A stretch of 29,187 bases of DNA from an uncultured Gemmatimonas sp. Its GTDB lineage: Bacteria > Gemmatimonadota > Gemmatimonadetes > Gemmatimonadales > GWC2-71-9. The notes under the pieces are model-generated. The model ran no database searches. It had not been told where the DNA came from and saw only the letters and a program-made list of their open reading frames with translations. Position numbers and translations under genes: made by a program. The DNA is taken from assembly GCA_964398345.1 (NCBI GenBank), contig CAYNNS010000004.1:1-29187 (forward strand), read 5' to 3'. Below, piece by piece: positions 4,673 through 25,679 of this stretch; position 1 is the stretch's first letter, and each line of letters opens with the position of its first letter.

Positions 4673-5080
4673 ATGCTTTACAACTTTCTCCTCATACTTC
4701 TCATCATCGATGGCATCGTGCTCGCCGCCTCGGTCCTGCTCCAGGCGGGGCAGGGTGGCGGACTCGCCTCGATGGGCGGCGGCACCACCGATATGGTGAT
4801 GGGTGGCCGCCAGGCGGTGACCATCCTGCACAAGGCGAGTTGGATCACCGGCGGGCTGTTCATGTTCCTCGCGGTGGTGCTGTCGATCGTTGCCTCGCAG
4901 CGGACCGTTGGGCAGTCCGACGTTCAAAGGCAGCTCCGCCAGCAAGCCGCTCCGGTTCAGCCGCCGGCACCTCCGGCGCCTTTGCCGCTCCAGACACAGC
5001 CGGCTACCGGCAACGCCCCGGTCACTCCGGCGCCGGCTCCCGCGCCGGTTCCTCCTTCGCCGGCTCCCAAGAAGCCGTGA
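4673..5080 (+). CDS. secG: Preprotein translocase subunit SecG
   Basis: Two TM segments around [17 protein letters not shown]...ILHKASW, then a Pro-rich tail. Start placed at ATG 4673 rather than the track's TTG 4637, which is the -35 box. Confidence 0.9.
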
Positions 5081-6228
5081 GCCCAAGCGTTCCTGAGCGG
5101 GGCGAACCGGACACCGGTCGCCCCGCTTTTGTTTTGCTGGAAGACGGCGCCTGGTTTCCCGGCGTCTTGCACGAGCCCGCCGAGCCGGCCTTTGGAGAAG
5201 TGGTATTCACGACCAATCTCACCGGTTATCAGGAAACGTTTACCGACCCCAGCTACCTCGGCCAGATCGTGGTAATGACTGCGCCGATGATCGGGAACTA
5301 CGGGATCAACGGCAGCGACCTCGAATCGGAGCGGCCCCAAATCAGCGGAGTAGTTGTGCGTGAGCTGTCACGTACCGCGTCAAGCTGGCGCGCCACCGGA
5401 GGCCTGGCGGAGTGGCTGCAGCGCTTCGCGATTCCGGTGATCGAGGGCGTGGACACCCGCAAACTCACGCGCCATATCCGCTCCCAGGGCGCGATGCGGG
5501 GCATGATCGCGGAAGGTGATGCTCCCAGCCCGGCGCAACGGGACGCGCTGCTGGCCTCGCCTTCGATGGAAGGGCGCGACCTCGCCCCGGAGGGGTCGAC
5601 GCGGGGGGGCGGGGGCGAAGGGGGGCAAGGTCCCCACGTGGTGGCCTACGACTTCGGCATGAAGCGCAACATCGTCCGCATGCTCAACGAGGCGGGTTGC
5701 CGGGTGACGGTGGTGCCGAGCACCACCACCGCAGCCGAGGTCAAGGCGCTGGAACCGGACGGGTTGTTCCTGTCCAACGGACCCGGAGATCCCGCGGCAC
5801 TCACCGGCGCGATCGCCAGCGTGCGCGAACTCGCCTCGAGCGGCCTTCCGACCTTCGGGATCTGCCTGGGACACCAGGTCCTTGGACTGGCCTTCGGCGG
5901 CCGGACAGCGAAGATGCCTTATGGTCATCGTGGCGGGAACCATCCGGTGCGCGATCTCGCCAGTAGCCGGGTGCTGATCACCTCCCAGAATCACGGATTT
6001 GCCGTGGAAGGAACCCCCGAAGGCATCCCCGGCGCCCCAGATCTCGAGGTGACGCACCTCAATTTGAACGACGGAACCGTGGAAGGCCTTCGGCACAAAG
6101 CACTTCCGGTTTTTGCCGTGCAGTATCATCCCGAGGCGTCACCCGGACCGCACGATGCCCATCCGCACTTTGCCGAGTTTCTGGCTCTCATGGCCCAGAA
6201 AACCGGGTCAAAACCCGCAACCTCTTGA
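5077..6228 (+). CDS. carA: Carbamoyl-phosphate synthase small (glutaminase) subunit
   Basis: Motifs [46 protein letters not shown] (catalytic Cys), [16 protein letters not shown] and [12 protein letters not shown]. Start inferred at GTG 5077 (GTGA overlap with secG stop). Confidence 0.96.
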
Positions 6229-6253
6229 CAGACAACAGGTAAGCTCATAGTAT
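6225..6253 (+). promoter_or_regulatory. Sigma70-type promoter for the HU/IHF gene
   Basis: TTGACA (6225-6230), 17 bp spacer, TAGTAT (6248-6253). The -35 box overlaps the carA stop. Confidence 0.75.
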
Positions 6254-6316
6254 CGGCACAAAGGAACGCCCTGCCCAAGGGCGATTGCCTGTCCCGGTTC
6301 CGCTATTGGGGGTAGC

Positions 6317-6652
6317 ATGACCAAAGCCGACCTCGTCGAGCAGGTAACCGCCGCCATGGCCCGGACTTCGGGGCCGCTTATCTCCAAGAAAGACTGTGCT
6401 CGTGTCGTGGATTCGTTCCTCGACGCGATCAAGAGCGCACTCAAAGATCAGCACAACATCGAGGTGCGAGGCTTCGGCACCTTCAAGATTCGCCGCCGGA
6501 AGACCCGCATGGCGCGCAACCCGCGCACCGGTGAGCCCGTCGAAGTCGCCGCCCGCCCGGTCCCTGTCTTCAAGCCCAGCAAAGAGTTGCGGGCGCTGGT
6601 CGCCGATGAACCGCATGAGGGACTCGACGGACCGGAAGAAGAGACGGAGTAG
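6317..6652 (+). CDS. HU/IHF family nucleoid-associated DNA-binding protein
   Basis: Motifs MTKADLVEQV, IEVRGFGTF, ARNPRTGEPV and PVFKPSKEL, plus an acidic C-terminal tail. HU and IHF cannot be told apart by eye. Confidence 0.93.
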   Translation: MTKADLVEQVTAAMARTSGPLISKKDCARVVDSFLDAIKSALKDQHNIEVRGFGTFKIRRRKTRMARNPRTGEPVEVAARPVPVFKPSKELRALVADEPHEGLDGPEEETE

Positions 6653-6663
6653 CCGCACGACAA

Positions 6664-6687
6664 CGGGCGCCTGAAGCGAGGCGCCCG
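6664..6687 (+). terminator. Candidate hairpin/terminator after the HU gene
   Basis: Perfect 9 bp stem CGGGCGCCT / AGGCGCCCG with loop GAAGCG, followed by only a weak U-rich tail (GTTATTCTCT). Confidence 0.4.
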
Positions 6688-6700
6688 GTTATTCTCTGGT

Positions 6701-6955
6701 ATGGCCGACACTCCCACTGTCCGCGTTCAGCTCTTCGCGCGCTATGCCGAGCTCTTCGGCCGCGAATACGTCGAACTATCGCCGGAGGGGATCCACACCG
6801 TCGCGGACGTCCTCGAGCGGCTGCGCGGCTTGCCAGGTGGAACGGCCCTGGGCGCGGCCACGCTCGTGGCAGTCAATCTTCGTCAGGCAAAGCCCTCTGC
6901 TCCCGTGAAGCCGAGTGACGAAATCGCGATTCTGCCGCCGCTGGCCGGCGGCTGA
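6701..6955 (+). CDS. moaD: Molybdopterin synthase sulfur carrier subunit (MoaD/ThiS family)
   Basis: 84 aa with VRVQLFARYAE, VAVN, DEIAILPPLAGG and the C-terminal di-glycine; adjacent to moaE. Confidence 0.9.
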   Translation: MADTPTVRVQLFARYAELFGREYVELSPEGIHTVADVLERLRGLPGGTALGAATLVAVNLRQAKPSAPVKPSDEIAILPPLAGG

Positions 6956-6956
6956 C

Positions 6957-7379
6957 GTGGGCTTTCTGTCAGAGACTCCCCTCGAGCTCGATGAGCTGAT
7001 CGCCGCGGTATCGGGAGCTTCTCGCGGAGGCGTCGTGACATTCCTGGGCACGGTGCGGAATCACCACGGTGGGCGCGGCGTCAGTTCGCTCGGCTATAGC
7101 GCTTACGAGCCCATGGCGGAATCGGTCTGCGCCGAGATCGTCGCTGAAGCCGAGCAGAAGTGGCCGGTCAAGATCGCCCTCAAGCATCGCCTGGGGGAGC
7201 TCCGCATCGGTGACAGCGCCGTGGCCATCGCGGTTGCGGGAGACCACCGCGACGAGGCCTTCGCCGCGTGTCGCTATGCGATCGAAGAGCTCAAGCGCCG
7301 GGTGCCGATCTGGAAGCGGGAGATGTTCGCGGACGGGAGTGTGGAGTGGGTGGGGGCGGAGGGAGTTGTCGGCCGATGA
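6957..7379 (+). CDS. moaE: Molybdopterin synthase catalytic subunit
   Basis: Motifs GGVVTFLGTVRNHH, YSAYEPMA, HRLGEL.IGD..V and ELKRRVPIWKRE. Start inferred at GTG 6957, just after the moaD stop. Confidence 0.93.
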   Translation: MGFLSETPLELDELIAAVSGASRGGVVTFLGTVRNHHGGRGVSSLGYSAYEPMAESVCAEIVAEAEQKWPVKIALKHRLGELRIGDSAVAIAVAGDHRDEAFAACRYAIEELKRRVPIWKREMFADGSVEWVGAEGVVGR

Positions 7380-8422
7380 CCGCCGGTCCGCCCGTCCGCC
7401 TGTCCGACCACCTCGGCCGTCCGCTCGGCAGCCTGCGCTTGTCGGTCACCGACCGCTGCAACATGCGCTGCGGCTACTGCATGCCGGAGGAGAATTACGT
7501 CTGGCTGCCGCGCGAGTCGTTGCTCAGCTTCGAGGAGCTGGATCGGGTCGCCGGAGTTTTCCTGCGGCTCGGAGCCACCAAGCTGCGGCTCACCGGTGGC
7601 GAACCGTTGCTGCGTCACGAGCTGCCCACGCTCATCGGCATGCTCGCGGCGCGTCCGGGGCTGGGCGATCTAGCCCTCACGACGAACGGCATTCTGCTCG
7701 CTGCCCAAGCAGAGGCGCTGCGCGCCGCGGGACTCAGGCGCGTAACGGTCAGCCTGGACACGCTCCGGCCGGAGCGCATGCTCGCGTTTGCCAGGAGCGC
7801 GCGCCACGCCGATGTCTTGCACGGCATCGAGGTGGCACAGGCGGCCGGCTTCGAGCGGATCAAGCTCAACAGCGTGATCATCCGTGGCTTCAACGACGAC
7901 GAGGTGGTCCCCCTGCTGGAGTTCGCCCGGGCCCACGACCTCGAGCTGCGCTTCATCGAGTACATGGATGTGGGTGGCGCGACGCGCTGGCGCCGCGAGG
8001 ACGTGGTGAGCCGGGCCGCGCTGCTCGAACAGGTCGCCGGGCGATTCGGCGCTCCCGAGCCGCTCACCGATCCGGCGAACCCGAGCGTGCCTGCCGAGCG
8101 GTTCGTCCTGCGCGACGGCACGGTGTTCGGGATCATCGCGTCGGTCACGGCTCCGTTCTGCGCGAGCTGTGATCGCAGCAGGGTCACCGCGGACGGTACC
8201 TGGTTCACCTGTCTCTATGCGGGCAAGGGTATCGATCTGCGCGAGCCGCTGCGGATGGGTTGCACCGACGCAGAGCTCGAACGGCTGATCACCGATACCT
8301 GGCGGCATCGCAGCGATCGGGGTGCCGAGCTACGGCTGGGATTACGGGATCGGGGGGTGCTCTACCAGGTCGAAGGGCTGCGCCAGGATCCGCATCGCGA
8401 AATGCATACCAGAGGCGGGTAG
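7376..8422 (+). CDS. moaA: GTP 3',8-cyclase (radical SAM)
   Basis: LRLSVTDRCNMRCGYCMP (CxxxCxxC), RLTGGEPLLR, RFIEYMDVG, FCASCDRSRV..DG..FTCL and C-terminal MHTRGG. Start inferred at ATG 7376 (ATGA overlap with moaE). Confidence 0.96.
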   Translation: MTAGPPVRLSDHLGRPLGSLRLSVTDRCNMRCGYCMPEENYVWLPRESLLSFEELDRVAGVFLRLGATKLRLTGGEPLLRHELPTLIGMLAARPGLGDLALTTNGILLAAQAEALRAAGLRRVTVSLDTLRPERMLAFARSARHADVLHGIEVAQAAGFERIKLNSVIIRGFNDDEVVPLLEFARAHDLELRFIEYMDVGGATRWRREDVVSRAALLEQVAGRFGAPEPLTDPANPSVPAERFVLRDGTVFGIIASVTAPFCASCDRSRVTADGTWFTCLYAGKGIDLREPLRMGCTDAELERLITDTWRHRSDRGAELRLGLRDRGVLYQVEGLRQDPHREMHTRGG

Positions 8423-8973: not shown

Positions 8974-10977
8974 TTACCGCGCCACCCGTACCGGAGTGAA
9001 GCGAGCCGCGTTCGTTCCGTCGCCCAGCTGGCCATAGGCGCCCAGGCCCCAGCACCAGATCGCCCCCAATGCTGTAAGCCCACAGGAGTGCTCCGACCCA
9101 ACGGAGATGGCGACGAAACTCACTCCGGCCGGCATGGACACGGCCACGGGCGCGGGTCGATCGGTGGCGGTTCCATCACCCAGCGCTCCGGTTCCGTTGT
9201 AACCCCAGCACCACGCCGCCCCGGCCGTGGTGAGTGCGCAGGTGTGATCGACTCCGGTGGCGAAGGTGACAAAGGTCACTCCCGCCGGCATCGACACGAG
9301 AACTGGGGTGGGTCGGGGTGTGCTCGTCCCGTCGCCCGTCAGCCCGCCCGCGCCCCAGCAATACATCACCTGAGTAAAGGTCATGCCGCAGCCGGCCACA
9401 CCGGTCTGCACCGAGGCGAAGCTGACGCCGGCCGGGGCAGACACCGGCGACGGCACATTCCGCTGCGTGGTGGTGCCGTCTCCAATCTCATTGTTGAGGT
9501 TGATGCCCCAGCAATAAGCGACCCCGGTGGCTGTGGTTGCGCAGGCGGTTTGGAACCCCGCGAATAGGGTAGAAAAGAAAACACCGGCCGGCGGAGTGAC
9601 CGCCGTCGGAAGCGCATGGTTGGTATGGAGCCCGTCGCCGAGCGTCCCGACGACGCCGTTACCCCAGCAGTAGCCCGTGCCGGTGCTCTCCAGCCCGCAG
9701 GTGAAAGTGCCGCCCGCGCTGATCGAGGTGAACGTCACTCCGAGGGGAGGAGTAACCAGGGTTGCCGTCAGCCGGTTGACCGAGCCTCCGTCGCCGATCG
9801 CGCCGCCTGCGCCATATCCCCAGCAATACGCAGAGCCACCCACAGCCAGGGCGCAATTGGTCACCGTTGTCACCGCATCGCGCTGGTTCTGGCTCACCGC
9901 GATGAAGCGCACTCCCGCGGGGGCGACTACGCGGGTAGGGACAGACCGGTTCGTCGTGGTTCCGTCGCCCAGCTGCCCGTTGTTGTTCTGCCCCCAGCAA
10001 TAGAGGGCGTTGGACGCGGTCACCCCGCACGTCGTGGCGTTGCCGACTCCAACTGAGACGAAGTTGAGGAAGGTCGTAAAGGCGCTGCTGGTTGCCGAGG
10101 TGAGCCCTGTAGCGGAGGCGACCAGCGTATACCCAAATCCGGCCTGGCTGAGGGTGAGGCCGGCGAAGTTTGCGACCCCGCCCACGGCATTGACGGAGAT
10201 GGTGCCCCCCAGGACGCCGGCTCCGGGATTGGTGCCGATGGCGAGGTTCACGGTATTGCGCGCACCGACCACGAGGGCACCGTTGGCGTCGCGGATCTCG
10301 ACCTGCACGGAGTTCGGGAAGTTGAGGCCTTCGGTCGCTCCGGTTGGCTGCACCGTAAAAGCAAGCTGAGTTGCGACCTGAGTAACGGTAAGCAGGGTAC
10401 TCCCCGGGACGCCGAGTGCAGCCGCCGTGACCGTGGTGGTCCCTGGGGCCTTTGCCGTCGCCTTGCCAGTGGCATCGACCGTTGCGACGGAAGGATCCGA
10501 GGAGATCCACAGAAACCCGACTCCGTTGACCACGGCGCCGGCCGCATCCTTGGCCACGGCCGTGAATTGCTGATTGGCGCCGATGGCGGTGAGCGTCGGC
10601 GTCCCCGGCGTCACCTCCACCGTGCTCACCTGCTGAGCGACGAGGATCGAGGCTTGCCCGGTCTTGCCATCGACACTCGCCGAGATCGTCGCCTCGCCCT
10701 GCGCGACCGCCGTGACCAGCCCGGTGCCTGGATCGACGCTGGCGACCGCCATGGCTGAGGATTGCCACGCGAAGGTCTTTCCGTTGATGACGTTGCCCGC
10801 CGCGTTCCGGGCCTGTGCCGTGAGCTGGCGGGTGCGGCCGATGGCGAGCAGCGTGTCACGGCCAGGGGTAATGAGAATCGAAGCGACGACCTGTGAGCTC
10901 GGCCCTGTCGTCGATCCGCCGCTACCGCAGGCGACGAGTACGGCGAGGGTCACGGAGGCGAGTGCGCGACGTTGCAT
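8974..10977 (-). CDS. Lipoprotein with Ig-like (Big_2-type) domains and a C-terminal RCC1/BLIP-II-like repeat propeller
   Basis: Signal peptide with lipobox [16 protein letters not shown]|C. Two repeats of the type WxSS...VAxVD.tG..TA..G..TI.A, a third Ig-like domain, then seven C-x7-8-CWG...GDG repeats. Start placed at ATG 10977. Confidence 0.85.
8977..10063 (-). repeat. Seven ~52-aa RCC1-like protein repeats
   Basis: Seven occurrences of (Y/W)CWG each followed by GDG; six are followed by a P(A/L)GV linker. Confidence 0.85.
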
Positions 10978-11070
10978 GGGACGCTTCGCGTTCGGGAGGT
11001 GAGGAAGCAGTAGCAAGCGGACCGAATGGAAGCAAGAGTCTCCGATGTTGGTGCACGCAGAGAACTGCGG

Positions 11071-11105: not shown

Positions 11106-12035
11106 ATGCTCAACAAGATCACCGTGGTGGGCGCCGGCAACGTCGGTGCATCGGCGGCCGTACGTCTCGCCGAGAAGAGCCTGGCGCGCAGCGTCGTCAT
11201 GGTAGACGTGGTCGAAGGCGTGCCTCAGGGCAAAGGCCTCGACCAGTGGCAGTCCGGACCGATCGAGGGCTACGACACCCGGGTCATCGGCGCGAACGAT
11301 TACAGCGCCGCTCAGGGCTCGGAGCTCTTCGTGGTGACGGCGGGGATCGCGCGCAAACCCGGTATGAGCCGCGACGATCTGGTCAAGACCAACGCCGGCA
11401 TCGTGCAGGCGGTGGGGAAGGAGATCGCGCGGGTCGCGCCACAGTCGATCATCATCGTGGTCTCCAACCCGCTCGACGTGATGTGCTACGTCGCGCTCAA
11501 GGCGAGCGGCTTTCCGCGCGAGCGCGTGCTCGGCATGGCGGGCGTGCTCGACACGGCGCGCTATCGCATGTTCCTCGCGGAAGCGCTCGACGTATCGGTC
11601 GAGGATATCCAGGCTATGGTGCTTGGCGGCCACGGCGACACCATGGTGCCACTGGTGTCGTACACGACGGTCTCCGGCATTCCCGTCACCCAGCTGCTCG
11701 CCAGGGACAAGCTCGACGCGATCGTCGCGCGGACCCGGAACGGCGGCGCCGAGATCGTGGCGCACCTCAAGACCGGGTCGGCGTACTACGCGCCGAGCGC
11801 GGCGTCGGTGCAGATGGTGGAGGCGATCGTTCTCGACAAGAAGCGGGTGCTGCCCTGCGCCGCCTGGCTGCAGGGGGAGTACGGGTTGCGCGACCTCTTC
11901 TGCGGCGTGCCCTGCAAGCTGGGCCGCCGCGGCCTTGAGCAGATCCTCCAGGTCGAGCTCACCGCCCAGGAGCAGGCCGAGCTCAAAGCCTCGGCGGAGT
12001 CGGTCCGGAGCGTGCAGGCCGGACTGGCGCTCTGA
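11106..12035 (+). CDS. mdh: Malate dehydrogenase (LDH-like MDH)
   Basis: Motifs [44 protein letters not shown] and GSAYYAP. Start placed at ATG 11106. Confidence 0.96.
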
Positions 12036-12062
12036 GCGGCAGCGGGCTACCGGGTTAGGTTC

Positions 12063-13958
12063 GTGAGCGTCCATCCCCCGCGTCCCCGCCTCGTGGTGCG
12101 GGTGGGGGTCACCGGACATCGCTGGAACAAGCTGCGACACGAAGACGCCGACGCCATCCGGCAACAGTGCCGGGCGGCCCTCGGCGCGATCAGCGACATC
12201 GCCGCCGCGATCGCGACGGAGCCGCACTCCGGGTATCGGGATCCGACCGAAATGCCGGCCGAGCTGCGGCTGGTGTCCGCCCTGGCCGAAGGGGCGGACC
12301 GCCTGCTGGTAGAGGCGGGCCCGACCCACGCGACGCTGCAGGCGATTCTCCCCTTTGCTGCGGACGTGTACCAGCGGGACTTCACCGAGCCCGACTCGCG
12401 CCGCGCGCTGGACCGGTATCTCGAGCGCGCCAGGCGGGAAGCGGGCGTCGTGGTGCTGGATGGCAAGCGCGACGCGACCAACGCGTTCGAGCCGAGCGGC
12501 ACGGCGGTGTGCCTCAATTCGGATGTGCTGATCGCGATCTGGGACGGCCAGGCCGGGCAACCCGGCGGCACCGGTGACGTGGTGGACCTCGCGGGACGGG
12601 TGGGCATTCCGGTGCTGCGGATCGCGCCGAGCGGGGCGGAGCCGCCCTGGCTGGAGCAGCCGGAGCTCGCCGATCGCGGGAAGGGAAGCGGGTTAGGCGC
12701 GCTGGCGGAACGGCTGCGCCGGCTCTACCTCCCGCCGGCCCCGCCGGCCGACGCCGACCGCGAGGAGCTGCACGAGTGGCACCGCCTCGATCTCCGGGAG
12801 CGCTACTTCGCGGAGCACCATCGCGGCTGGCAGCGGGGGCGGTTCTACAACTTTCTGCTACGGCTGCTCGCCTTTAGCTGGCGCGATCGCGCCGCGTGGT
12901 GGCGGACGCTGCGGCAGGGCGAGGGCCCGCGGCCGCGTCGCGCCCCGCCGCATTACGGCGATGCGGTGCGAAAGCGCTGGACCCGGAAATGGAAGCAGGA
13001 GCTCGGCCTTTCGGGCGAGTGCGTGGACTGGATGCTGGAGTCCTCGCTGCCGGATCACTACGGCTGGACCAGCTACCTCGCCAGCTACTACGCCGGGCGC
13101 TACCGCAACACCTATCTCTGGGCTTATCTGCTCTCCTGGATCGCGGTGGGATTCGGTGCGGCGGGGGGCCTGGCGACGACGTCGCTGCTGCTCTGGGTGC
13201 CGTACTCGAGCGTGGTGACCGCAGCAGTGGAGACCGGCATCCTGGTCGCCATCTTCTATCTCATCGCGCGGGCGCGGCACGGCAAGTTCCACGAGCGCTG
13301 GCTGGCGTACCGCTCGCTGACGGAGGGCTTGCGGTCGCTCACCTATACCTTGCCGCTGGCGCGGGCATCGACGCTCGACGCCCGCAAGGCGCGCGAGTCC
13401 GAGCACTGGGGCGACTGGCTGCACCGCGCGGTGGTACGCGAGCTGGGACAGCCGCCGGCGGTGATGTCGGCGACGCACCTCGCCGAGGCGCGCACCCTGC
13501 TGGTGGAGGAGGTGTTGCGCGAGCAGATCGCCTATCACACCCAGAACGCCGCGACGTTGGCGCGGGTGGACCGGCTGCTGCATCGCGCCACCGAGGTGCT
13601 GTTTTTCGTGGCGGTGGCGATCGGATTGAACCACCTGTACGAGGCGATGCAGCTGCTGCGCAGCAAGGCGGGTCTCCAGCTGGAGATTCTCACCATCGCG
13701 TTAGGCGTCGTGGCGATCTCCATTCCCGCCGCTGCCGCGGCGATTCACGGGTTCCTGAGCCAGGGGGAATTCGAGCCGAGCGCGGACCGTTCGCGGAAGA
13801 CGCGGCGGGAGCTGATGCGGCTGGAAAAGCGTGCGCTCGATGCGCCGCTCACCAGTGCGGCGCTTGGCGAGGTCGCGTCGGAGACCGCGCAGGCGATGCA
13901 CAGTGAGCTGGGGGCCTGGTTCGCGGCCTACAACACCAAGGGACTCAAATACCCCTAG
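12063..13958 (+). CDS. SLOG-domain protein fused to two SLATT/DUF4231-like 2-TM modules (candidate nucleotide-sensing membrane effector)
   Basis: N-terminal Rossmannoid SLOG motifs VGVTGHR, VSALAEGADRL, ILPF, SDVLIAIWDG...GGTGDVV..A...GIPV. Then two hydrophobic hairpins (~13110-13275 and ~13590-13760) followed by ERWLAYRSLTEGLR and EFEPSADRS motifs. Confidence 0.72.
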   Translation: MSVHPPRPRLVVRVGVTGHRWNKLRHEDADAIRQQCRAALGAISDIAAAIATEPHSGYRDPTEMPAELRLVSALAEGADRLLVEAGPTHATLQAILPFAADVYQRDFTEPDSRRALDRYLERARREAGVVVLDGKRDATNAFEPSGTAVCLNSDVLIAIWDGQAGQPGGTGDVVDLAGRVGIPVLRIAPSGAEPPWLEQPELADRGKGSGLGALAERLRRLYLPPAPPADADREELHEWHRLDLRERYFAEHHRGWQRGRFYNFLLRLLAFSWRDRAAWWRTLRQGEGPRPRRAPPHYGDAVRKRWTRKWKQELGLSGECVDWMLESSLPDHYGWTSYLASYYAGRYRNTYLWAYLLSWIAVGFGAAGGLATTSLLLWVPYSSVVTAAVETGILVAIFYLIARARHGKFHERWLAYRSLTEGLRSLTYTLPLARASTLDARKARESEHWGDWLHRAVVRELGQPPAVMSATHLAEARTLLVEEVLREQIAYHTQNAATLARVDRLLHRATEVLFFVAVAIGLNHLYEAMQLLRSKAGLQLEILTIALGVVAISIPAAAAAIHGFLSQGEFEPSADRSRKTRRELMRLEKRALDAPLTSAALGEVASETAQAMHSELGAWFAAYNTKGLKYP

Positions 13959-16829
13959 TTACAGCCCCGCCTTCTGTTTGGCTCTGAGATAGCGCTCGTG
14001 GAACTGGGGATCGGCGCGGCGCCACGCGGATTCGACAGCGCGCCAGTGGGCCTTCGCGCTGTCGGATTGGCTCGCCTGTTCGAAGGCCTGGGCCATCGCT
14101 TCGTGGAGCTCCGTACGGCTGGTGTAGGTGTTGCTGCCGTCGACGCCGCCGCGGATGGCGGGGCGTAACACGGCGATGGCTTCCGCCGGGCGATGGAGCT
14201 CGAGCAGGCTCCGCGCCATCATGAGATTGGTGCGGGTGTAGCCATCGGTCAGCGAGAAGAGCGAGCGCCGGAAGGCATCGACCGCGTCGGCGTGACGGCC
14301 CTGGCTCTGGAGCAGGAGTCCCCGCAGGAAGTAGTGGAGCTTGGCGTCGCGCCCGAAGTGGCTGGTCTGGCCAAGCACTTCGAGTGAATCGGCGAGTCGC
14401 CGGACGACCGCGGAGTCGCCGGTGGCGGCATACACCGTCCCGGCGAGCGTGAGATACCAGATCATGTAGCGGTTCCGCACGCCGGGAGGCGTCTTCGAAT
14501 GGATGGTCCGTTCGAAGTCGTGACGGAAGGTGCGGATCGACACCTCCGGATGCCCTCGCTCGAACCCGATCATGAAGGCATCGTCGGGTTGGTCGGCCGG
14601 AACGCCACCTCGGGCGAGGATGTCTTCGCGCGACCGCTGGCGTACGCTGTCCGCCTCGCGCAGCCGACCCTGGTCGCGAAGACTCAATTGCAGCAGCCAC
14701 CACGCTTCGCCCTGGTTCTCCCGAATTGAGCTGCGCGCATTGTCCCGCAGCCTCCGATCCACCTCCTCGTAGCGCCCCCAGCGTATGGCATCGCGGAAGA
14801 GCATCGGCGCGTGGGAAACATCCGAGGTGTCCGGATCGAGCGCGGCTTCGATGCGAGCGGCTTCCTGAAAGCGTCCCTGGCGCAACAGCGGCTCGATGAG
14901 GTTGGACCGGCTGGACGCTTCCGGCCGCAACGCACTGAGGCGCCTGGCGGTCCGCTCCGCGGCGGCTGCCGAGTCCCACCAGAGGTATTGCTGCGCCATT
15001 CCTCCTAAGGCGCTGCACACGCGGCAATAGGGACCGTGCAGCGTACCGGCAGCCGAATCGAGCTCGACCGCGCGCTGGTACGCGGCGACGGCCTCCGCCC
15101 AGTTTCCCGCGTACCATTGGACGTTGCCGAGCAGGAGATGGCCCTCGGGGTCGCCGGGATATTTGACCGTCAGGGTTTCGGCGATGGCGAGGGAGCGGCG
15201 GAGCGGGGCATCTACCTCAGCGATGGAACCGAGGATGAGCAGGCGCTCGCGCTCGGTAGTCCGCGCCGCGAGCCGTTGCGCACGGGACTGCTCCTCGGCC
15301 TGCGTGGAATCGTTGGCGAAGGAGCGGCCCAGCTGCCAGACGTAAAACGCCGCCATGGCGAAGTTCGAGTCGCGCTCGAGTGCCGCTCGCATCAGGCGGT
15401 ACGCGGCCGGTGCGTCATAGCCGTAGAAGGCCCGCAAGCCTTCGTCGTAGAGGGCGTATGCGGCGGGTGACGCGGTGCGGATCTCGGTGGCGGCGAGTGT
15501 AGGAGGCGAACGCTGCAGGTCGCGCGCGATGGCCGCCGCCGCGCTATCCACCACGGCGAAACGATTGGTGGCGCGAACCACATAGCCTTTGCGTACGACT
15601 CCGCGCTGGAGCGTAACCCGCTGCAATGAGAGGACCAGACCGCCCGGCTCTGTGGCCAGGTTCCCCTCGATGACTTCGGTGGCGCCCGCCCGGCGAGCCG
15701 CGTCGTGGACAGCTCGGGGAATCGTGTCCGCACCGCGTGGCATGAGCTCCACCAGCCGGGAGTTCGCGACGACCGGGAGACCGTCGATGCCACCGAGACT
15801 CGTTGCCAGCAAGTCGCGCAGGATGGGACCGGTCCGGGCGCTGTCGCTCGAGCCTTCGACGCGAATCTCCCCCACGGCGAGAAAGAGGCCACCCTGGTCG
15901 GCACGACTTCCCAGCCTCCGCGCCACCAGCGCGACGGCTAGGAGCGAGAGCAAGGCCGCCGGAATCAGCCAGCGCTTCCAGTGCCGCTCCGGCTGAGCGG
16001 GACTCGCGGATACGATCGGCTGTGCTGGAGCGGGTTGAGCCGGGAACGGTGCGGGGGCTGACGACGCTGGCTTCAGCGACGGCGCCGACCTCAAGGTCTG
16101 CTCCAGCTTGAGGACCGCCGGATCCGGTTCGGTATCCAGCTCTCGCTGGACCGCCTCGCAATAGGCTCTTGCGCGTACCAGCGCGGCGGAACGATCTCCA
16201 GCATTCGCCAGCGACTGCATGTGACCCGCGGCGTAACGCGCGCACAAGGGGTCGAGGTCGCTCAGCTGCTGCCACCAGCGCAGCGCTTCCGCATGGTCGC
16301 CGGTTTCGTCGGACTGTCTGGCCAATCGCTCGATGGCGCGCAGAGCGACCTGGTGCAGCCGAGCTCGCTCATCCTCGACCCAACGCTCGAAGTCGGGCGC
16401 GGCGGGCAGGTAGAAGCCTTCGAGGAAGCGGCCGGTATAGAGCGTGGCAATCGCGTTGAGGTCTCCGGTTGCCGCAGCCTCCTGGAGCTCGCCGATGTCG
16501 CTGGGGATGGTCAGCCGGAGCTGGGTGGTGCCGGAGATGAGCTCGGTCCCGCCGTCTCGCCTCAGGCTATAGAGCGTCTGGGACAGGGTGTGCCGAGCCT
16601 GGTCCTCGCCGGTGTCGGGCCAGAGGATCCCGATCACCCGTTCCCTGGAAATGGCCTTCTTACCCGCTGCCGCTACCACCGCGAGCAGCGCAAGCTGTCT
16701 CGGTCCGAGTGACGGAGACGCCGCCAGTTCTTCGATCCACAACCCGCCGATAGTCTTGAGGCGCAAGAGCTTCCGAGCGCTTTGATAATCGTTTGATAGA
16801 GCCTGATCCGCCCCTGACGGGGGCGGCAT
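13959..16829 (-). CDS. SARP/AfsR-like transcriptional regulator: winged HTH + BTAD, TM helix, TolB-like domain and TPR repeats
   Basis: N-terminal LRLKTIGGL...LALLAVVA...ISRERVIGILWP...ARHTLSQTLYSLRR, then SDI..L...Y.G.FL.GF...A.DFERWVEDER.RL (BTAD), a Pro-rich linker, TM LIPAALLSLLAVALVA, and TPR-like helices (AYALYDEG; GHLLLG..W..AVAAYQRAVELD). The true start may be ATG 16829 or TTG 16766. Confidence 0.82.
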   Translation of the reverse strand: MPPPSGADQALSNDYQSARKLLRLKTIGGLWIEELAASPSLGPRQLALLAVVAAAGKKAISRERVIGILWPDTGEDQARHTLSQTLYSLRRDGGTELISGTTQLRLTIPSDIGELQEAAATGDLNAIATLYTGRFLEGFYLPAAPDFERWVEDERARLHQVALRAIERLARQSDETGDHAEALRWWQQLSDLDPLCARYAAGHMQSLANAGDRSAALVRARAYCEAVQRELDTEPDPAVLKLEQTLRSAPSLKPASSAPAPFPAQPAPAQPIVSASPAQPERHWKRWLIPAALLSLLAVALVARRLGSRADQGGLFLAVGEIRVEGSSDSARTGPILRDLLATSLGGIDGLPVVANSRLVELMPRGADTIPRAVHDAARRAGATEVIEGNLATEPGGLVLSLQRVTLQRGVVRKGYVVRATNRFAVVDSAAAAIARDLQRSPPTLAATEIRTASPAAYALYDEGLRAFYGYDAPAAYRLMRAALERDSNFAMAAFYVWQLGRSFANDSTQAEEQSRAQRLAARTTERERLLILGSIAEVDAPLRRSLAIAETLTVKYPGDPEGHLLLGNVQWYAGNWAEAVAAYQRAVELDSAAGTLHGPYCRVCSALGGMAQQYLWWDSAAAAERTARRLSALRPEASSRSNLIEPLLRQGRFQEAARIEAALDPDTSDVSHAPMLFRDAIRWGRYEEVDRRLRDNARSSIRENQGEAWWLLQLSLRDQGRLREADSVRQRSREDILARGGVPADQPDDAFMIGFERGHPEVSIRTFRHDFERTIHSKTPPGVRNRYMIWYLTLAGTVYAATGDSAVVRRLADSLEVLGQTSHFGRDAKLHYFLRGLLLQSQGRHADAVDAFRRSLFSLTDGYTRTNLMMARSLLELHRPAEAIAVLRPAIRGGVDGSNTYTSRTELHEAMAQAFEQASQSDSAKAHWRAVESAWRRADPQFHERYLRAKQKAGL
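16781..16798. promoter_or_regulatory. AT-rich heptamer direct repeat TTTGATA-N4-TTTGATA (11 bp period), candidate operator
   Basis: The exact repeat is seen at 16781-16787 and 16792-16798, in the 5' region of the SARP-like gene and ~85 bp upstream of the divergent operon. Confidence 0.45.
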
Positions 16830-16883: not shown

Positions 16884-17336
16884 ATGGGACGGTTGGCCTG
16901 GTTGGTGGTTGCCCTGGTGATGGGGCTTCGGGAAGCCCCCCGGCAGCGGCCGCTTCTGTGGCAGGCGGACCTCCAGGTGCGCAGCCTGACGGTGACCGAA
17001 GACAAGGGGAATCTGTCCGCTCGGGTGGTCGTGGCGACCGAGGTCGGTGAGGCGCTGGGGGCGCGGCTGGAAGTGTTGCTCCCGGTTGGAGTGGGGATCG
17101 TGAGCCTTGGGTCGGGCTGCGTTCCGGGGCCGAATCGCACCGGGATCCGGGAACTCAGGGCCCGGGTCGAGTGCACCCTGGGAGACATGCAGGCGGGGTC
17201 GAATCGCGAGGTCATCGTGGTGACGACGACGCCCCCCAGCGGGATCGCGAAGGGATTCGCCGTGGTCGTCATGAGCGAGACGCCCGATCCCAAGCCGAGC
17301 AACAACTTCGCAGAGCGGGTTATTCCACTTCCGTGA
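16884..17336 (+). CDS. Exported DUF11/CARDB-like Ig-fold protein
   Basis: SD GAGGGG and a hydrophobic N-terminus, then ADLQV...VECTLGDMQAG...V...SETPDPKPSNN, which matches the DUF11 pattern (ADL ... DP..SNN). Confidence 0.65.
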   Translation: MGRLAWLVVALVMGLREAPRQRPLLWQADLQVRSLTVTEDKGNLSARVVVATEVGEALGARLEVLLPVGVGIVSLGSGCVPGPNRTGIRELRARVECTLGDMQAGSNREVIVVTTTPPSGIAKGFAVVVMSETPDPKPSNNFAERVIPLP

Positions 17337-17347
17337 GGACATTCTCT

Positions 17348-18049
17348 ATGAAACGCGGTTTCGGTGTGCTGGTCGTCGCTGCTGTGCTCACCCTGGTTCA
17401 GGCTCGGCCCGCCGTGGCCCAGTCAGGCGACTTCGTGGCGGGCAGCCGCGACCTCTTCGTGATGGATCTGGCCTCCACGCCAACGGGCGAGCTTCCCCAG
17501 GTCTGCGGCCCCAAAGTCCCGCCTCCTTGCCTGGAAATGATGCGGGGCAATGTCACAACAGTGGACAAGGACGGATCGCACATGTTGCGGGCGGCTGACC
17601 CTGCGCAGGTCTGGATCAGGATTCCCCAGGTCATGCCGAACGATTTCACCATCGAGCTCGACTTGATCCCGAAGCCTCTGGGTATCGCGCCTTCCGATTT
17701 CGCGATCGAAGGTACCAGGGAGACCAATCGGGGTGATGCGTCCCTGATGCTGGAGTGGCAGACGCAAGCCATCATGGTCGTTGGCGGCGCGCAGGGCGCG
17801 TCGTTCCAGCGGCCGCAGCCCGAGGACCTCAAGGCTACCACGCCATCGGAGCTTACGGAAATCCGCATCAGCTACAACGACGGGGCGCTCAAGATGTACG
17901 TCAACGGGCAGCGCCTGGTGAACCTGCCCAAGCTCGCCTTCGCCCGCAACCGTGGCCTTCGGCTCGAACTGGGTGGCGCCGATGACGACAAGGCGGCCGT
18001 GTATCTGGCGAAGTTCCGGCTCGCGACCAACAGCCCGAAGCCGCAATGA
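17348..18049 (+). CDS. Exported protein, stand-alone 'domain A' (ConA/LamG-like beta-sandwich, inferred)
   Basis: Signal peptide MKRGFGVLVVAAVLTLVQARPAVA|Q from ATG 17348 with upstream TGAGGA. Shares VDKDG.HMLRA, P..FT.E and D.K.AVYL motifs with the genes at 18046 and 21745. Confidence 0.75.
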   Translation: MKRGFGVLVVAAVLTLVQARPAVAQSGDFVAGSRDLFVMDLASTPTGELPQVCGPKVPPPCLEMMRGNVTTVDKDGSHMLRAADPAQVWIRIPQVMPNDFTIELDLIPKPLGIAPSDFAIEGTRETNRGDASLMLEWQTQAIMVVGGAQGASFQRPQPEDLKATTPSELTEIRISYNDGALKMYVNGQRLVNLPKLAFARNRGLRLELGGADDDKAAVYLAKFRLATNSPKPQ

Positions 18050-19896
18050 GCCGAGATGGGTCGCGGGGCGTGGGGGTCGCGGCGGCGCTACTGCTGGCGA
18101 GTGGTGTCACAGCGGCGTCCGCGCAGCAGTCGGTCAGCGGTGGTGCGCGTCAGATCATGGCGCTCGACTTCACGGCGATGCCGATCGGGGATTTTCCGAA
18201 GCGCAAGGATTTGAGCACGAACAGCAGTCTGGAAATCGTGGACAAGGACGGCGTCCACATGCTCAGAGCCGGGTTTCGGTCCGAGTTCGTGATCAACCTG
18301 CCGGAGAATCTGCCGGACCTGTTCACCCTGGAGTTCGAGGTGATTTCGCAGGAATGCTGCGGCTCCGATGACCTTGGGTTCGAGACCACCAAGAACGACC
18401 CCACCCAGAGCTCGGCGAAGGTCACGTGGTCGCCCGCGTTACAGGCAGTGAGTGGAGGAGGAGGTAACCCTAACCCATTCACGGCTACCACCAAGCTCAC
18501 GGGTGGGCAATTGGCGCATGTCCTCGCGAGCGTCGAGGGCACCACCATCAAGATGTATACCGACAATGATCGACTCTATACCGCGACGGGGTATCGCCTG
18601 GCGAGGGGCCAGGTATTGCGGGTGTCACTTAACGGGACTGATGAGAAGAAGGGAGCGGTCTATCTCGCGCGGGTTAGGGTAGCGGAAGGCGCCGCGACCG
18701 TGACCCAGATCGCTGCCACCGGCAACGGGTCGGGCGCTGGTAGTGGCACCACTGCCGGTAGTGCGGCAACCGGGGCGGGTAGCGGTTCTGCCAGCGGGGG
18801 AGGATCGACTCCCACCGGATCAGGTTCCAGCGGCGGCACCCAGCAGAATGCAGCGACGGAACCGGCAGCCGGAACGGCCGCGGTGGTTCACGGCGTGAAG
18901 GCGACGGTCGGTAGCCTGATGTCCCCTGAAGCCACGGTGAGCTGGCAGTCGGTGCAGGGTGCGACAACCTATTTCGTGATGCGGTGGAAAGATGGAAGCA
19001 CCTGCTGCGTTGAGTCTTCGTCACCGCTGGGAACGTCGAGCCTCAGTTGGCAGGACGGAGGATTGAGCCAGCCGGGGATCTACAGGTACCGCGTCTATGC
19101 GCACACGCCGTCCCTGATCTATACCGGAGAAACGACGGTCCAGTACCCCGCGTCGCTAGAGGCCGTGGCCTTGCTCAACCTCCAGCCTCATGCCCCGCTG
19201 GGAATCCTCCTGGCATGGGGACCGGTCGCGAATGCGACGACCTATCGCGTGTACCGGCAGGCCGACGCCACTCAATCCGGAGTGGTCCTTGGCACGGTGC
19301 CCGCCACATCGGGCCCGACTTCCCCATTTCTGGGCGGCCTGCCGGGAGCGGTCGATGCGGAAGTTACGAATGATGCCGGCAAGTACCAGTACTGGGTACA
19401 GGCAGGCTTCGCGAACGGTAGCAGCAGTGAGCCGGGGCCGGTAACGAGAGTCACGGTGCAGGGCGGGAATAGTCCTCCGATTGGCACTTGGGGAGTCAGC
19501 CTTCCTATCGCGCCTGCGAATATCAAGGCAACGCCCGGTGGGACGACGACGATCACGGTCAATGGTCAACAGGTCCCTGGAAGCAAGGTCGTTGTGACGT
19601 GGGATCAGGATCTCGATACGTATCCGGTCTACTTGTATTTCACCACAGTTGAATCCGCCGGGTCGTCTTCCGGTTTCGGAACCGCTTGGGTCCCGTACAA
19701 ATCGGAGACCGTCAGCGTTCCGGGGACCCCGTTAATCCCGTACCTCAACCCGGCCAGCGCCGTCGGACCGCCGTACACCGTTGAGGTTCCGGCGGGAATG
19801 ATGATCAGGGTCTGCGTCTCGTATTTCCCCCTGACGCCGGACCAGCGCCAGCAGTACGGGAGCACCGCGTGTGCCGGTGCCCAGATCCCCCAGTGA
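18046..19896 (+). CDS. Exported modular protein: domain A + G/S/T linker + Fn3-like modules
   Basis: Signal peptide ...ASA|Q; domain A with ECC; low-complexity GSGAGSGTT linker; Fn3-like VSWQSVQGATTYFVMRW...YRYRVYA and LAWGPVANATTYRVYR. Confidence 0.78.
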   Translation: MSRDGSRGVGVAAALLLASGVTAASAQQSVSGGARQIMALDFTAMPIGDFPKRKDLSTNSSLEIVDKDGVHMLRAGFRSEFVINLPENLPDLFTLEFEVISQECCGSDDLGFETTKNDPTQSSAKVTWSPALQAVSGGGGNPNPFTATTKLTGGQLAHVLASVEGTTIKMYTDNDRLYTATGYRLARGQVLRVSLNGTDEKKGAVYLARVRVAEGAATVTQIAATGNGSGAGSGTTAGSAATGAGSGSASGGGSTPTGSGSSGGTQQNAATEPAAGTAAVVHGVKATVGSLMSPEATVSWQSVQGATTYFVMRWKDGSTCCVESSSPLGTSSLSWQDGGLSQPGIYRYRVYAHTPSLIYTGETTVQYPASLEAVALLNLQPHAPLGILLAWGPVANATTYRVYRQADATQSGVVLGTVPATSGPTSPFLGGLPGAVDAEVTNDAGKYQYWVQAGFANGSSSEPGPVTRVTVQGGNSPPIGTWGVSLPIAPANIKATPGGTTTITVNGQQVPGSKVVVTWDQDLDTYPVYLYFTTVESAGSSSGFGTAWVPYKSETVSVPGTPLIPYLNPASAVGPPYTVEVPAGMMIRVCVSYFPLTPDQRQQYGSTACAGAQIPQ

Positions 19897-19909
19897 GGAG
19901 GCATCGCGC

Positions 19910-21748
19910 GTGAGCGGAATCAAGACGCCACTCGTGTTAGGGGCGCTGGCAGCGGTGGGTGTAGCGCTGCATCCGGTTGCGGCACAGCTGACGACGACAC
20001 CAACCCTGTCGGGGTTGGTGGCGCGGGTTACTTCCGCCGGGGCCGGATCAGTCAGTTGGTCGGCCTTTCAGGGCGCGACCTCCTATCTCGTCGTGCGCTG
20101 GAATACTGCCGACCCGTCCTGTTGCAAAGCGCTCTCTCCCCCGAGCCTCGGCGCCACGACGCTGAGTTGGCAAGACGGCACGCTGCCGCTGGCGGGGACC
20201 TATGCGTACCGAGTCTACGCGACCACGCCGACGGGGACGTACGCGGGCGAAGTCAAACTGGTCTACAACTCGGGGGTTGCATCGAACTCCGATCCGAACC
20301 TGCGATCGAGCGTGACGGCGGCGGGAGGGTCGGGCGGTGGGACGGCACTCTCCAGCGGCCCCACCTCGACGCTCTCTCGCCCCTCCGGTAGCGCGGAGCC
20401 CATGAACACCGGTCCCGCACCCAGCGGTCTCCAGATCACCGGTGGGGTCACGACCGCGAGCCTGCAATGGGATCCCGTCGCAGGAGCCACGGGATATCGG
20501 GTGGCGCGCGCACTCGCGGGGACGACGGGTTGGATGCCGCTGACGCCTAGCGCCATCACGGCGACCAGCTATTCGAGTGATCCGCTGCCGGATCCACGGG
20601 CCACCTATACCTATCAGGTGACTGCGGTCCAGGCCGACGGGCACTACGGTGTCGCCACCAGGAACTATGCGCCGCCTCCACCCTCTGACCCAACGGAGTT
20701 CAGCGCTGCGCAAACCGCAGAACACGAGGTGGAACTGAGCTGGAGGGATACCCCGGGCGTCACGAAATACTTGATCAGTGGACCTGGTGCCCCGGGTACA
20801 CCCGTGTCGAGCAATGCGATGACCCTGGGCATCATCGGGGTCTCCGGGAAGTCATCCTACAAGCTTGCCGGCGTAGCAAACGGAGTGCAGAGCTGGACGA
20901 TTGCGTCTGCCTACGCGCCTGGCGGAGTCCTGACCACAGCGGACAAGTGGCCGAAGGCGACACTGACGGTCGGCTCTCTCTCGGGCAAGTATCGGGTGAC
21001 GATCATCGGATTCGACGTGAATGCCCAAACCGTGGGCGATCCGTTCACGGACGGACTCGGTGACGAGGTCTACCTCGTCGCGCACGTCTCGACGTTCAAC
21101 CTGTCGACCGGCGCGGTGGGAGTCCAAGGAGTTATCCGCAGCTTCCTCTTTGGGGATGTCACGAATCTGCCGGGACGCGTGAAGGCCGGTACGTTGAGTC
21201 AAAATGGTGGACTCAAGAGCGGCGATGCCTATCCGCTCTCGGGCGGCGGCACCATGCCGCCCGTCACGCCGGAGGCGAATACCGTGCCGATGCTGCTCTG
21301 GGAGGGCCAACTGACCAACGACGTCGATCTGTTGCTGATCGCCCCGTCAGTCTGGGAGAGCGATGGCAATGATGCAGCATTGTCGGATTGGAGTCACTGG
21401 ATCGAGACGGGGGCTCATCCCCTGAATTACCAGCCGCTGCAGAACGAGATCACAGCGACCGGGATTACTCCGATCCGGCACTCGGATGCTTCCTACGTCG
21501 GCACGCTAAGGGGCCCTGGCGTCGATCACCCCATTGGAATCGTGACGGTGAGCAGCACGACCTCGACCACCTATGCCCAGATGTATCTCGCGCTGACGCG
21601 GCGTAAGATCGAAGCTGCGCTCTCCCCGAGCTCGACGGTTGGAGGCCTCGCTCCCGGTGTCCTCGCAGTTCCCCTCAAGGATCTTTATTCCGCTGAGGGA
21701 TTTGGCGGGGCCTACACCGTCTATCTGCGCGTGGAGCGATTGCCATGA
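19910..21748 (+). CDS. Exported modular protein: Fn3-like modules + unknown C-terminal beta domain
   Basis: SD GAGGAG (19895-19900) and GTG 19910; signal peptide ...HPVAA|Q; Fn3-like VSWSAFQGATSYLVVRW and LQWDPVAGATGYRV...YTYQVTAV; C-terminal ~250 aa domain starting GKYRVTIIGF. Confidence 0.78.
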   Translation: MSGIKTPLVLGALAAVGVALHPVAAQLTTTPTLSGLVARVTSAGAGSVSWSAFQGATSYLVVRWNTADPSCCKALSPPSLGATTLSWQDGTLPLAGTYAYRVYATTPTGTYAGEVKLVYNSGVASNSDPNLRSSVTAAGGSGGGTALSSGPTSTLSRPSGSAEPMNTGPAPSGLQITGGVTTASLQWDPVAGATGYRVARALAGTTGWMPLTPSAITATSYSSDPLPDPRATYTYQVTAVQADGHYGVATRNYAPPPPSDPTEFSAAQTAEHEVELSWRDTPGVTKYLISGPGAPGTPVSSNAMTLGIIGVSGKSSYKLAGVANGVQSWTIASAYAPGGVLTTADKWPKATLTVGSLSGKYRVTIIGFDVNAQTVGDPFTDGLGDEVYLVAHVSTFNLSTGAVGVQGVIRSFLFGDVTNLPGRVKAGTLSQNGGLKSGDAYPLSGGGTMPPVTPEANTVPMLLWEGQLTNDVDLLLIAPSVWESDGNDAALSDWSHWIETGAHPLNYQPLQNEITATGITPIRHSDASYVGTLRGPGVDHPIGIVTVSSTTSTTYAQMYLALTRRKIEAALSPSSTVGGLAPGVLAVPLKDLYSAEGFGGAYTVYLRVERLP

Positions 21749-23817: not shown

Positions 23818-23886
23818 TACACGCCCTGCGTGGATCATCCGCGGGGAAGTGCTCACCATGAGACCCTCGACCTGGACGTCACAGCG

Positions 23887-25655: not shown

Positions 25656-25679
25656 GCTCACTTGAGGAGATCTCCATCC

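Follow-up and report, generated by a model that had tools for sequence, protein, structure and literature searches.

The gene at positions 12063-13958 (+) of a 29,187-nucleotide stretch of DNA from an uncultured Gemmatimonas sp. (contig CAYNNS010000004.1 of assembly GCA_964398345.1; the whole stretch is called here the window) codes for a protein that combines an amino-terminal SLOG domain with two SLATT-like modules of two transmembrane (TM) segments each. We give slightly better than even credence to the reading that this protein is a single-chain sensor-effector of the inner membrane, whose SLOG domain would bind a nucleotide derived from NAD and whose SLATT hairpins would then make the membrane leaky, the signal coming from an unlinked source. 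The domain assignment is solid. At the family level, the gene neighbourhoods indicate that these proteins are likely the receiver and effector of a membrane-located TIR signalling system, a link that provides a testable lead. Its ligand and trigger, and any role in defence, are putative.

The SLOG assignment is based on structure and on residue conservation. An AlphaFold2 model of the whole protein, computed from an alignment of 38 full-length homologues with 27-83% identity, has a mean predicted local distance difference test (pLDDT) score of 89.2 and a predicted template modelling (pTM) score of 0.88, with no segment below 50. In this model the amino-terminal domain displays the SLOG superfamily fold, as had been proposed in an earlier reading of the DNA made without database searches (the sequence-only reading) from the motifs GVTGHR (amino acids (aa) 15-20), SALAEGAD (aa 72-79), DVLIAIWDG (aa 154-162) and GGTGDVV (aa 168-174). 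All four motifs are present and they are the most conserved columns of the 38-sequence alignment. The best structural match is Bacillus subtilis YpsA (PDB 2nx2; aa 10-194, Z 15.4, root-mean-square deviation (rmsd) 2.6 Å over 158 residues, 15% identity; VIA-align), a soluble, single-domain protein of ~180 aa that differs from the window protein in having no TM part. The same comparison gave Z scores of 11-12 for DprA, 10.7 for ShosA, 10.5 for the molybdenum cofactor (MoCo) carrier protein, ~9 for LOG and 7-7.4 for the SLOG domain of ThsA, all of which, like YpsA, we take to be members of the SLOG fold. Foldseek searches of the PDB placed YpsA on top, followed by DprA, the MoCo carrier protein, ShosA and TRPM entries, with a probability of 1.00 for YpsA and DprA. 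Residues G18, H19, L74, A75, G77, D79, D154, A158, W160, G169 and T170 are invariant in the 38 homologues, and G15, T17, R20, S72, E76 and G168 are also invariant or nearly so. The model positions the loop G15-x-T17-G18-H19 after the strand E11-18 and G168-G169-T170 after the strand E155-159, and these glycine-rich loops are thereby predicted to sit at the nucleotide-binding loop positions of the fold.

The presence of invariant polar residues (H19, D79, D154) beside the glycine-rich loops would also suit an enzyme, namely a membrane-anchored protein that processes nucleotides or nucleosides (a LOG-like N-glycosidase or similar) whose TM part would do no more than anchor it or act as a transporter. 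The fold is shared by LOG enzymes (Z ~9), and a CMP-hydrolase-type effector is known in type VIII Thoeris. LOG enzymes carry the motif PGGxGTxxE, however, and the conserved columns found here do not include the acidic residue that follows their GGxGT loop. YpsA and DprA, which are nearest in structure, bind rather than hydrolyse, and the double SLATT module conserved here typically forms the effector part of related systems. We judge the enzymatic role very unlikely.

The carboxyl half of the protein was described in the sequence-only reading as two SLATT-like modules with two TM segments each, a description that holds. Hydropathy defines four hydrophobic segments arranged 2+2 (~aa 352-379, 379-404, 505-523 and 534-567) which coincide with long helices of the model (H329-375, H382-406, H470-531 and H539-568). 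Their outer loops are short and uncharged or weakly charged, and the predicted cytoplasmic flanks are K/R-rich. Module 1 matches Pfam DUF4231 (E 1.6e-3, 19.3 bits for a cut-off of 24.7, aa 341-428) and NCBIfam SLATT_1 (E 5.8e-6, 26.3 bits for a cut-off of 41, aa 341-436), and module 2 gives a very weak match to Pfam SLATT_1 (E 3.9, aa 485-619). DUF4231 is found in 35 of the 38 relatives (best E 2.2e-7) and SLATT_1 in 5 (best E 2e-7). Structural searches place AlphaFold DB clusters named 'SMODS and SLOG-associating 2TM effector' or DUF4231 over aa 285-631, with E values of 2e-8 to 1e-4, and one AlphaFold DB entry of 669 aa aligns over the full length (TM-score 0.83, 21% identity). The modelled membrane half consists of two SLATT-like 2-TM hairpins, each followed by cytoplasmic helices. 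The linker that precedes them has no Pfam match within aa 225-335. Note that a likeness of the carboxyl half to alpha-pore-forming toxins (ClyA, Z 7.5; AhlC, 7.4; MakE, 6.9) lies below the level expected by chance for helical bundles and was not used, and that a prediction of a three-copy complex of aa 300-631 (score 0.00, chain pLDDT ~57) has no bearing on oligomerisation.

The protein belongs to a large family with recurrent neighbours. Scoring of 8000 candidates yielded 239 proteins at E <= 0.001, and a search with a 19-sequence subset of the alignment detected relatives in at least 562 species-level genomes. They are found in Acidobacteriota, Alphaproteobacteria, Gemmatimonadota, Thermodesulfobacteriota, Bacteroidota, Planctomycetota, Nitrospirota and Bacillota. 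The neighbourhoods of 80 loci, up to 10 kb on each side, were compared by clustering of their open reading frames (ORFs), whose representatives were named by Pfam, and by rescanning of all ORFs with hidden Markov models (HMMs) built locally from the matches. A TIR_2 protein is encoded within 10 kb at 33 of the 80 loci, a protein with an RyR domain (RyR or TrkA_N-RyR) at 32 and a patatin-like lipase at 10, whereas CD-NTase (SMODS) was not seen among the recurrent neighbours of the 80 relatives. TIR matches lie mostly close to the gene (27 of 37 within 2.6 kb), in varying arrangements that include many direct neighbours on either side and in several phyla. As a check against adjacency by chance, TIR_2 genes were counted in five genomes; four of these hold just 1-2 in 2.4-3.3 Mb, one of which adjoins the SLOG-SLATT gene. 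Since TIR_2 genes are often adjacent and TIR-poor genomes keep one beside the gene, the family has the appearance of an effector in a TIR signalling system akin to Thoeris. Inspection of homologue neighbourhoods had been proposed in the sequence-only reading, and it shows the family to be repeatedly encoded beside TIR_2 genes.

The consensus of the partner TIR domains retains the conserved catalytic Glu. These proteins feature an amino-terminal TIR domain, one strongly hydrophobic segment and variable domains (BNR/Sortilin-type propeller, DUF4189, DUF3859), as in L040:14027-15694(-), L047:3143-4513(+), L100:8465-9901(-), L050:4158-5192(-) and ~30 further loci (L numbers identify loci and G numbers genomes). 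Their sequence layout suggests a Toll-like-receptor-like topology with sensing outside the cytoplasm. The TIR partners look membrane-anchored with their domains outward, so that the stimulus of the system may not be phage.

TrkA_N-RyR proteins account for 27 of the 32 RyR loci. They have ~350-730 aa, most of them about 650-730, and nearly all are encoded immediately adjacent to the SLOG-SLATT gene. Their TrkA_N (RCK) domain is followed by a carboxyl-terminal RyR domain, for instance in L044:11786-13870(+), L042:11737-13932(+), L075:8120-9919(+), L060:11791-13761(-) and L062:5398-7209(+), and preceded by one or two amino-terminal hydrophobic segments. Their layout resembles that of channels, and sequence comparison with the PDB gave weak matches to the RCK domains of GsuK, TrkA and KtrA. 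The remaining RyR partners are mostly stand-alone proteins of 96-111 aa; four of their genes, and that of L004 outside the 80 loci, overlap or abut the start of the SLOG-SLATT gene. Examples from Acidobacteriota are L004:7707-7997(+), L051:9701-9991(+) and the equivalents in L074, L102 and L115. This gene arrangement suggests that stand-alone RyR and SLOG-SLATT proteins work as a closely coupled pair. Similar language-model features (score 0.89) were seen in an ESM Atlas cluster of archaeal RyR-domain proteins of 865 aa, which is a lead only. Genes for patatin-like phospholipases directly adjoin the SLOG-SLATT gene in L086, L038, L063, L070, L073, L107, L114 and L006, mostly in Alphaproteobacteria and Gemmatimonadota, and patatin may be a second effector of the same system.

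These elements can be assembled into a candidate mechanism. A YpsA-like SLOG domain, predicted to face the cytoplasm, is connected through the helical linker with two SLATT-type hairpins in tandem. The SLOG domain would bind an NAD-derived nucleotide of the ADP-ribose (ADPR) or cyclic ADP-ribose (cADPR) class, and binding would reorganise or oligomerise the four TM helices, so that the membrane would be depolarised or permeabilised and growth would stop. Such an action would parallel that of SLATT effectors of CBASS (cyclic oligonucleotide-based antiphage signalling systems) and of type VII Thoeris. The source-genome copy would have to receive its signal from an unlinked source, for which the SIR2_2-TIR + nSTAND1 operon described below is the sole candidate seen. 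The interpretation given in the sequence-only reading is partly supported: the architecture is right, and the sensor-effector role gains independent support from the adjacency of TIR_2 genes in the wider family.

The SLOG, SMODS and SLATT classes, SLOG-SLATT fusions included, were reportedly defined computationally by Burroughs et al. in 2015. The protein shares with prokaryotic SLOG-SLATT fusions a common plan and size, an amino-terminal SLOG domain being followed by DUF4231-type and SLATT_1-type 2-TM modules, and ESM Atlas contains ~640-aa clusters with the Pfam architecture LSDAT_prok + DUF4231 + SLATT_1. It differs from them in a SLOG domain that has no Pfam SLOG match and is nearer to YpsA than to the TRPM-type LSDAT, in the family's own set of neighbours (TIR, RyR/TrkA_N-RyR, patatin), and in that the window copy is an orphan beside mdh. 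TRPM2-type channels, which are gated by ADP-ribose, likewise carry an amino-terminal SLOG head (MHR1-2) on a membrane permeation module and TRPM is among the fold matches, but their 6-TM tetrameric channel is unrelated to the 2+2 SLATT hairpins and global alignments are poor (rmsd >30 Å). In type VII Thoeris, TIR-made cADPR activates the SLATT effector ThsH, for which oligomerisation in the membrane is predicted (Yirmiya et al., bioRxiv 10.64898/2025.12.03.692087). ThsH resembles the present family in placing SLATT in a membrane effector and in its genetic coupling to TIR proteins; by its description, however, ThsH is annotated with SLATT alone and the signal is modelled between protomers, whereas here SLOG and two SLATT modules are fused in each chain. 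ThsA (SIR2-SLOG, type I Thoeris) illustrates the use of SLOG as receiver of a TIR-made signal, its SLOG domain, of the STALD type (review PMC13276650), binding 3'cADPR (bioRxiv 10.64898/2025.12.03.692087). Its output is a SIR2 NADase and not TM hairpins, and its structural match (Z 7-7.4) is weaker than that of YpsA. A full-text literature search found no paper joining an RyR domain, SLOG and TIR. RyR, TrkA and patatin are not mentioned in the recent TIR survey (Yirmiya et al.), whose 29 putative Thoeris types could include the SLOG-SLATT family.

A number of observations weigh against the sensor-effector reading. Pfam gave no SLOG model match for aa 1-205 at E up to 1, and YAcAr was matched weakly by only 2 of the 38 relatives (E 0.0024). 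The domain is thus a sequence clade unrecognised by Pfam that is structurally closest to YpsA. In the Pfam comparison foreseen in the sequence-only reading, SLOG is missed and the DUF4231/SLATT_1 matches of the protein are below cut-off; DUF4231 is hit by nearly all relatives. The 29-kb window has no TIR, RyR or TrkA_N ORF, and SMODS (PF18144, the CD-NTase typical of CBASS) and RyR have no match in the source assembly, which is 73% complete; the co-encoded TIR generator of a Thoeris-type system, present for many relatives (33/80 loci), is absent from the window. The gene was rightly called an orphan. It shares this condition with 25 of the 80 family loci, which have none of TIR_2, RyR and patatin, and the protein may work without a dedicated generator. 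The window context is housekeeping (pgk, tpi, carA, moaA, SpoU, mdh) and no PADLOC-DB v2 system was found for the protein or its neighbours apart from a weak DrmC match (E 0.008, aa 416-527), which was judged spurious: it spans a helical/TM stretch and no genes of DISARM (defence island system associated with restriction-modification) are nearby. A defence role at this locus is consequently not borne out. The sequence-only reading had itself named homologues fixed in housekeeping contexts as evidence to the contrary, and close relatives do keep the mdh-linked position.

The source of a signal was also sought in the source genome. The sole TIR_2 match of the assembly is a SIR2_2-TIR protein of 478 aa on contig C111, whose stop codon overlaps the start of the gene for an nSTAND1 NTPase of 1169 aa (L037:3324-4760 and 4757-8266, +). 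This pair constitutes an NLR/Avs-like conflict operon, found with 39-86% identity in seven other genus genomes that were fetched. Further weight on the opposing side comes from the type of this TIR protein, which cannot be equated with the partners of relatives: it combines SIR2_2 with a carboxyl-terminal TIR, and the likeness is limited to the TIR domain. Other genus genomes code for unlinked proteins with an amino-terminal TIR that are full-length homologues of the partners in other genera. TIR genes were found in 14 of 14 genus genomes carrying the SLOG-SLATT gene versus 4 of 11 non-carriers, but on the mdh tree this co-occurrence amounts to 2-4 independent contrasts and is not significant, and it is inseparable from shared ancestry and assembly completeness. 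In G167 and G168, which have no SLOG-SLATT gene, a partner-type amino-terminal-TIR protein (~495 aa) overlaps the start of a 540-aa Ser/Thr protein kinase (L137:4792-7898 (-) and L138:4514-7635 (-), respectively), and TIR + kinase is a different TIR pairing. The 540-aa gene was considered as a diverged family member and discarded (hhalign probability 0.2%).

The genomic position of the gene raises the alternative of a domesticated physiological regulator, which in this genus would have ceased to serve in conflict. It would sense a housekeeping nucleotide (such as NAD(H), ADPR or AMP derivatives) and adjust the potential or the permeability of the membrane, perhaps in connection with the redox metabolism of the co-transcribed mdh. 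A loose parallel is the stand-alone SLOG protein YpsA, affecting cell division. The mdh stop codon (12033-12035) and the GTG start at 12063 are separated by 27 bp, as stated in the sequence-only reading, and a consensus scan of this gap found no terminator-like site; co-transcription with mdh, or read-through from it, is probable. The gene is found downstream of mdh in at least nine related loci (L001, L002, L003, L019, L020, L023, L024, L025, L026, L029; some from the same genome), within the synteny gap-pgk-tpi-secG-carA-HU-moaD/E/A-SpoU-mdh. This fixed place kept in many genus species, the purifying selection documented below, the lack of a generator gene nearby, the 25/80 orphan loci and the fact that the nearest solved structure is YpsA and not a Thoeris SLOG would all fit a regulator. 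A core function would be expected to be more uniformly kept, however, and the gene was found in just 13 of the 24 other species genomes of the genus searched and in 9 of 151 genomes of a phylum sample, source genome included; close relatives have clean empty sites and the protein diverges 4-5x faster than mdh. We hold such a regulator to be unlikely, though worth serious consideration.

Evolution of the gene was followed in the genus and in the phylum. Between the genus genomes compared, mdh has 85-91% identity while the SLOG-SLATT protein has 37-63%. Nonsynonymous (dN) and synonymous (dS) divergence, computed by the Nei-Gojobori method for four genomes, give dN 0.12-0.35, dS 0.80-1.33 and dN/dS 0.15-0.33 for SLOG-SLATT, compared to dN 0.04-0.10, dS 0.58-1.00 and dN/dS 0.07-0.11 for mdh. 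The gene is functional and under purifying selection, with protein change ~4-5x faster than mdh. These ratios, the full-length homologues (E down to 0) and the relatives found in at least 562 species genomes exclude a chance ORF. In G155 and G162 mdh is directly followed by the convergent BTAD gene, and in G167 and G168 by dcd and the nuo operon, these being clean empty sites. The gene is an unlinked single-gene insertion or deletion in a variable mdh-dcd interval, and its presence or absence requires at least four changes on the mdh tree. TIR, RyR or TrkA_N genes adjoin it at none of the genus loci.

Gemmatimonadota copies outside the genus have 33-41% identity. Besides the source genome, eight Gemmatimonadota genomes of the sample gave a match, and in six of them a TIR gene lies in the 1.5-kb flank of a copy. 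The genus copies group together in the family tree (Shimodaira-Hasegawa-like approximate likelihood-ratio test (SH-aLRT) support 99), nested within a clade of Gemmatimonadota. With a support of 98, 19 rows fall into a group of unresolved branching that unites the genus clade, a five-copy TIR-adjacent clade and one TIR-less lineage. One reading consistent with this is that the ancestor was coupled to TIR and that its effector gene persisted by itself in the variable mdh-dcd interval; the tree is unrooted and does not tell gain from loss. The adjacency of TIR in sister lineages, its lack here and the patchy presence in the genus, with the match in fragments in G164 and interrupted by one TGA in G170, could also be taken to mean that the gene is what is left of a TIR-coupled system in decay, now without function. 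The intact 631-aa frame in which every family-invariant residue is kept, the dN/dS of 0.15-0.33 over dS ~0.8-1.3 and the confident model make this extremely unlikely.

The partners of relatives allow the sensor-effector reading to be extended to a so far undescribed all-membrane TIR system, in which a TIR-TM protein with an outside sensor, the SLOG-gated double-SLATT effector as output arm and a channel-like 2TM-RCK-RyR or small RyR protein would be a bacterial counterpart of the eukaryotic axis from cADPR/ADPR to RyR/TRPM. In the genus, the effector would be uncoupled from TIR and either armed in trans (e.g. by NAD-derived products of SIR2-TIR/nSTAND1) or a guard firing on a phage- or stress-derived nucleotide. 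Taken as a whole this extension is clearly unlikely.

The general plan SLOG + DUF4231 + SLATT_1 is already known. What differs here are the YpsA-like SLOG clade missed by Pfam, the partner set of TIR with TM, RyR/RCK-RyR and patatin, and an orphan with presence/absence polymorphism in a genus. SLOG-SLATT fusions are said to have been predicted a decade ago as nucleotide-gated membrane effectors, and to our knowledge no SLOG-gated SLATT protein has been characterised so far. The family offers a sensor and a pore-forming part that can be studied together in one confidently modelled chain, and two-gene TIR + effector operons in genomes with one or two TIR genes, leading to unambiguous partner assignment. 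The series of orphans in one genus could show how an effector is re-wired or tolerated without generator. The recurrent RyR/RCK-RyR partners and membrane-anchored TIRs hint at signalling broader than classic phage defence. For annotation, the finding puts a name to a family of widespread 'hypothetical proteins' with a SLOG domain that is overlooked by current Pfam models.

The features of the gene and its flanks are collected in Table 1. The ORF has a GTG start, 631 aa and no internal stop. Its recorded version of 621 aa would lose the motif HPPRPRL (aa 4-10). As this motif is kept across phyla in the 38-sequence alignment and cut off in the shorter version, the GTG at 12063 is the better start and the recorded version is probably too short.

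Table 1. Features of the SLOG-SLATT gene and of its immediate flanks (window positions)
Feature	Position	Strand	Evidence or remark
mdh (malate/lactate dehydrogenase family), co-directional upstream neighbour	11109..12035	+	85-91% identity to Ldh_1_N + Ldh_1_C genes preceding the homologue in L001, L003
Spacer between mdh stop and GTG, 27 bp	12036..12062	+	No terminator-like site
Whole gene: SLOG + helical linker + two SLATT-like 2-TM modules, 631 aa	12063..13958	+	
SLOG domain (~aa 8-200), YpsA-like; loops GVTGHR, LAEGADR, DVLIAIWDG, GGT	12084..12662	+	VIA-align, Foldseek, invariant residues
Helical linker (~aa 201-335); conserved E251, W306, W335; no family match	12663..13067	+	Model helices H214-326, conserved columns
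SLATT/DUF4231-like module 1 (~aa 336-436); TM1 ~aa 350-375 (nt 13110-13187), TM2 ~aa 382-406 (nt 13206-13280)	13068..13370	+	Pfam, NCBIfam, hydropathy
Predicted cytoplasmic connector between modules (~aa 437-484)	13371..13514	+	Model; K/R-rich flank after TM2
SLATT-like module 2 (~aa 485-631); TM3 ~aa 505-531 (nt 13575-13655), TM4 ~aa 539-568 (nt 13677-13766), C-terminal helices	13515..13955	+	Weak Pfam SLATT_1, AlphaFold DB models, hydropathy
BTAD + TPR regulator, convergent neighbour, outside the system	13959..16829	-	Stop codons of both genes abut, 0 bp between

Further downstream, positions 17171-27259 (+) carry co-directional, partly overlapping genes coding for proteins of 292, 616, 625, 690, 312, 296, 213 and 319 aa, for which family matches are nearly lacking: there are only weak fn3 and Laminin_G_3 matches, one above-threshold match to NAGPA phosphodiester glycosidase and nothing meaningful in PADLOC. 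A defence-island setting for the SLOG-SLATT gene was rejected on this ground. Upstream, a gene for a Big_2 + RCC1-repeat protein of 680 aa (8974-11016, -) is inserted between SpoU and mdh in the window, whereas SpoU is directly followed by mdh in L001 and L003. Both flanks of mdh are thus variable in the genus.

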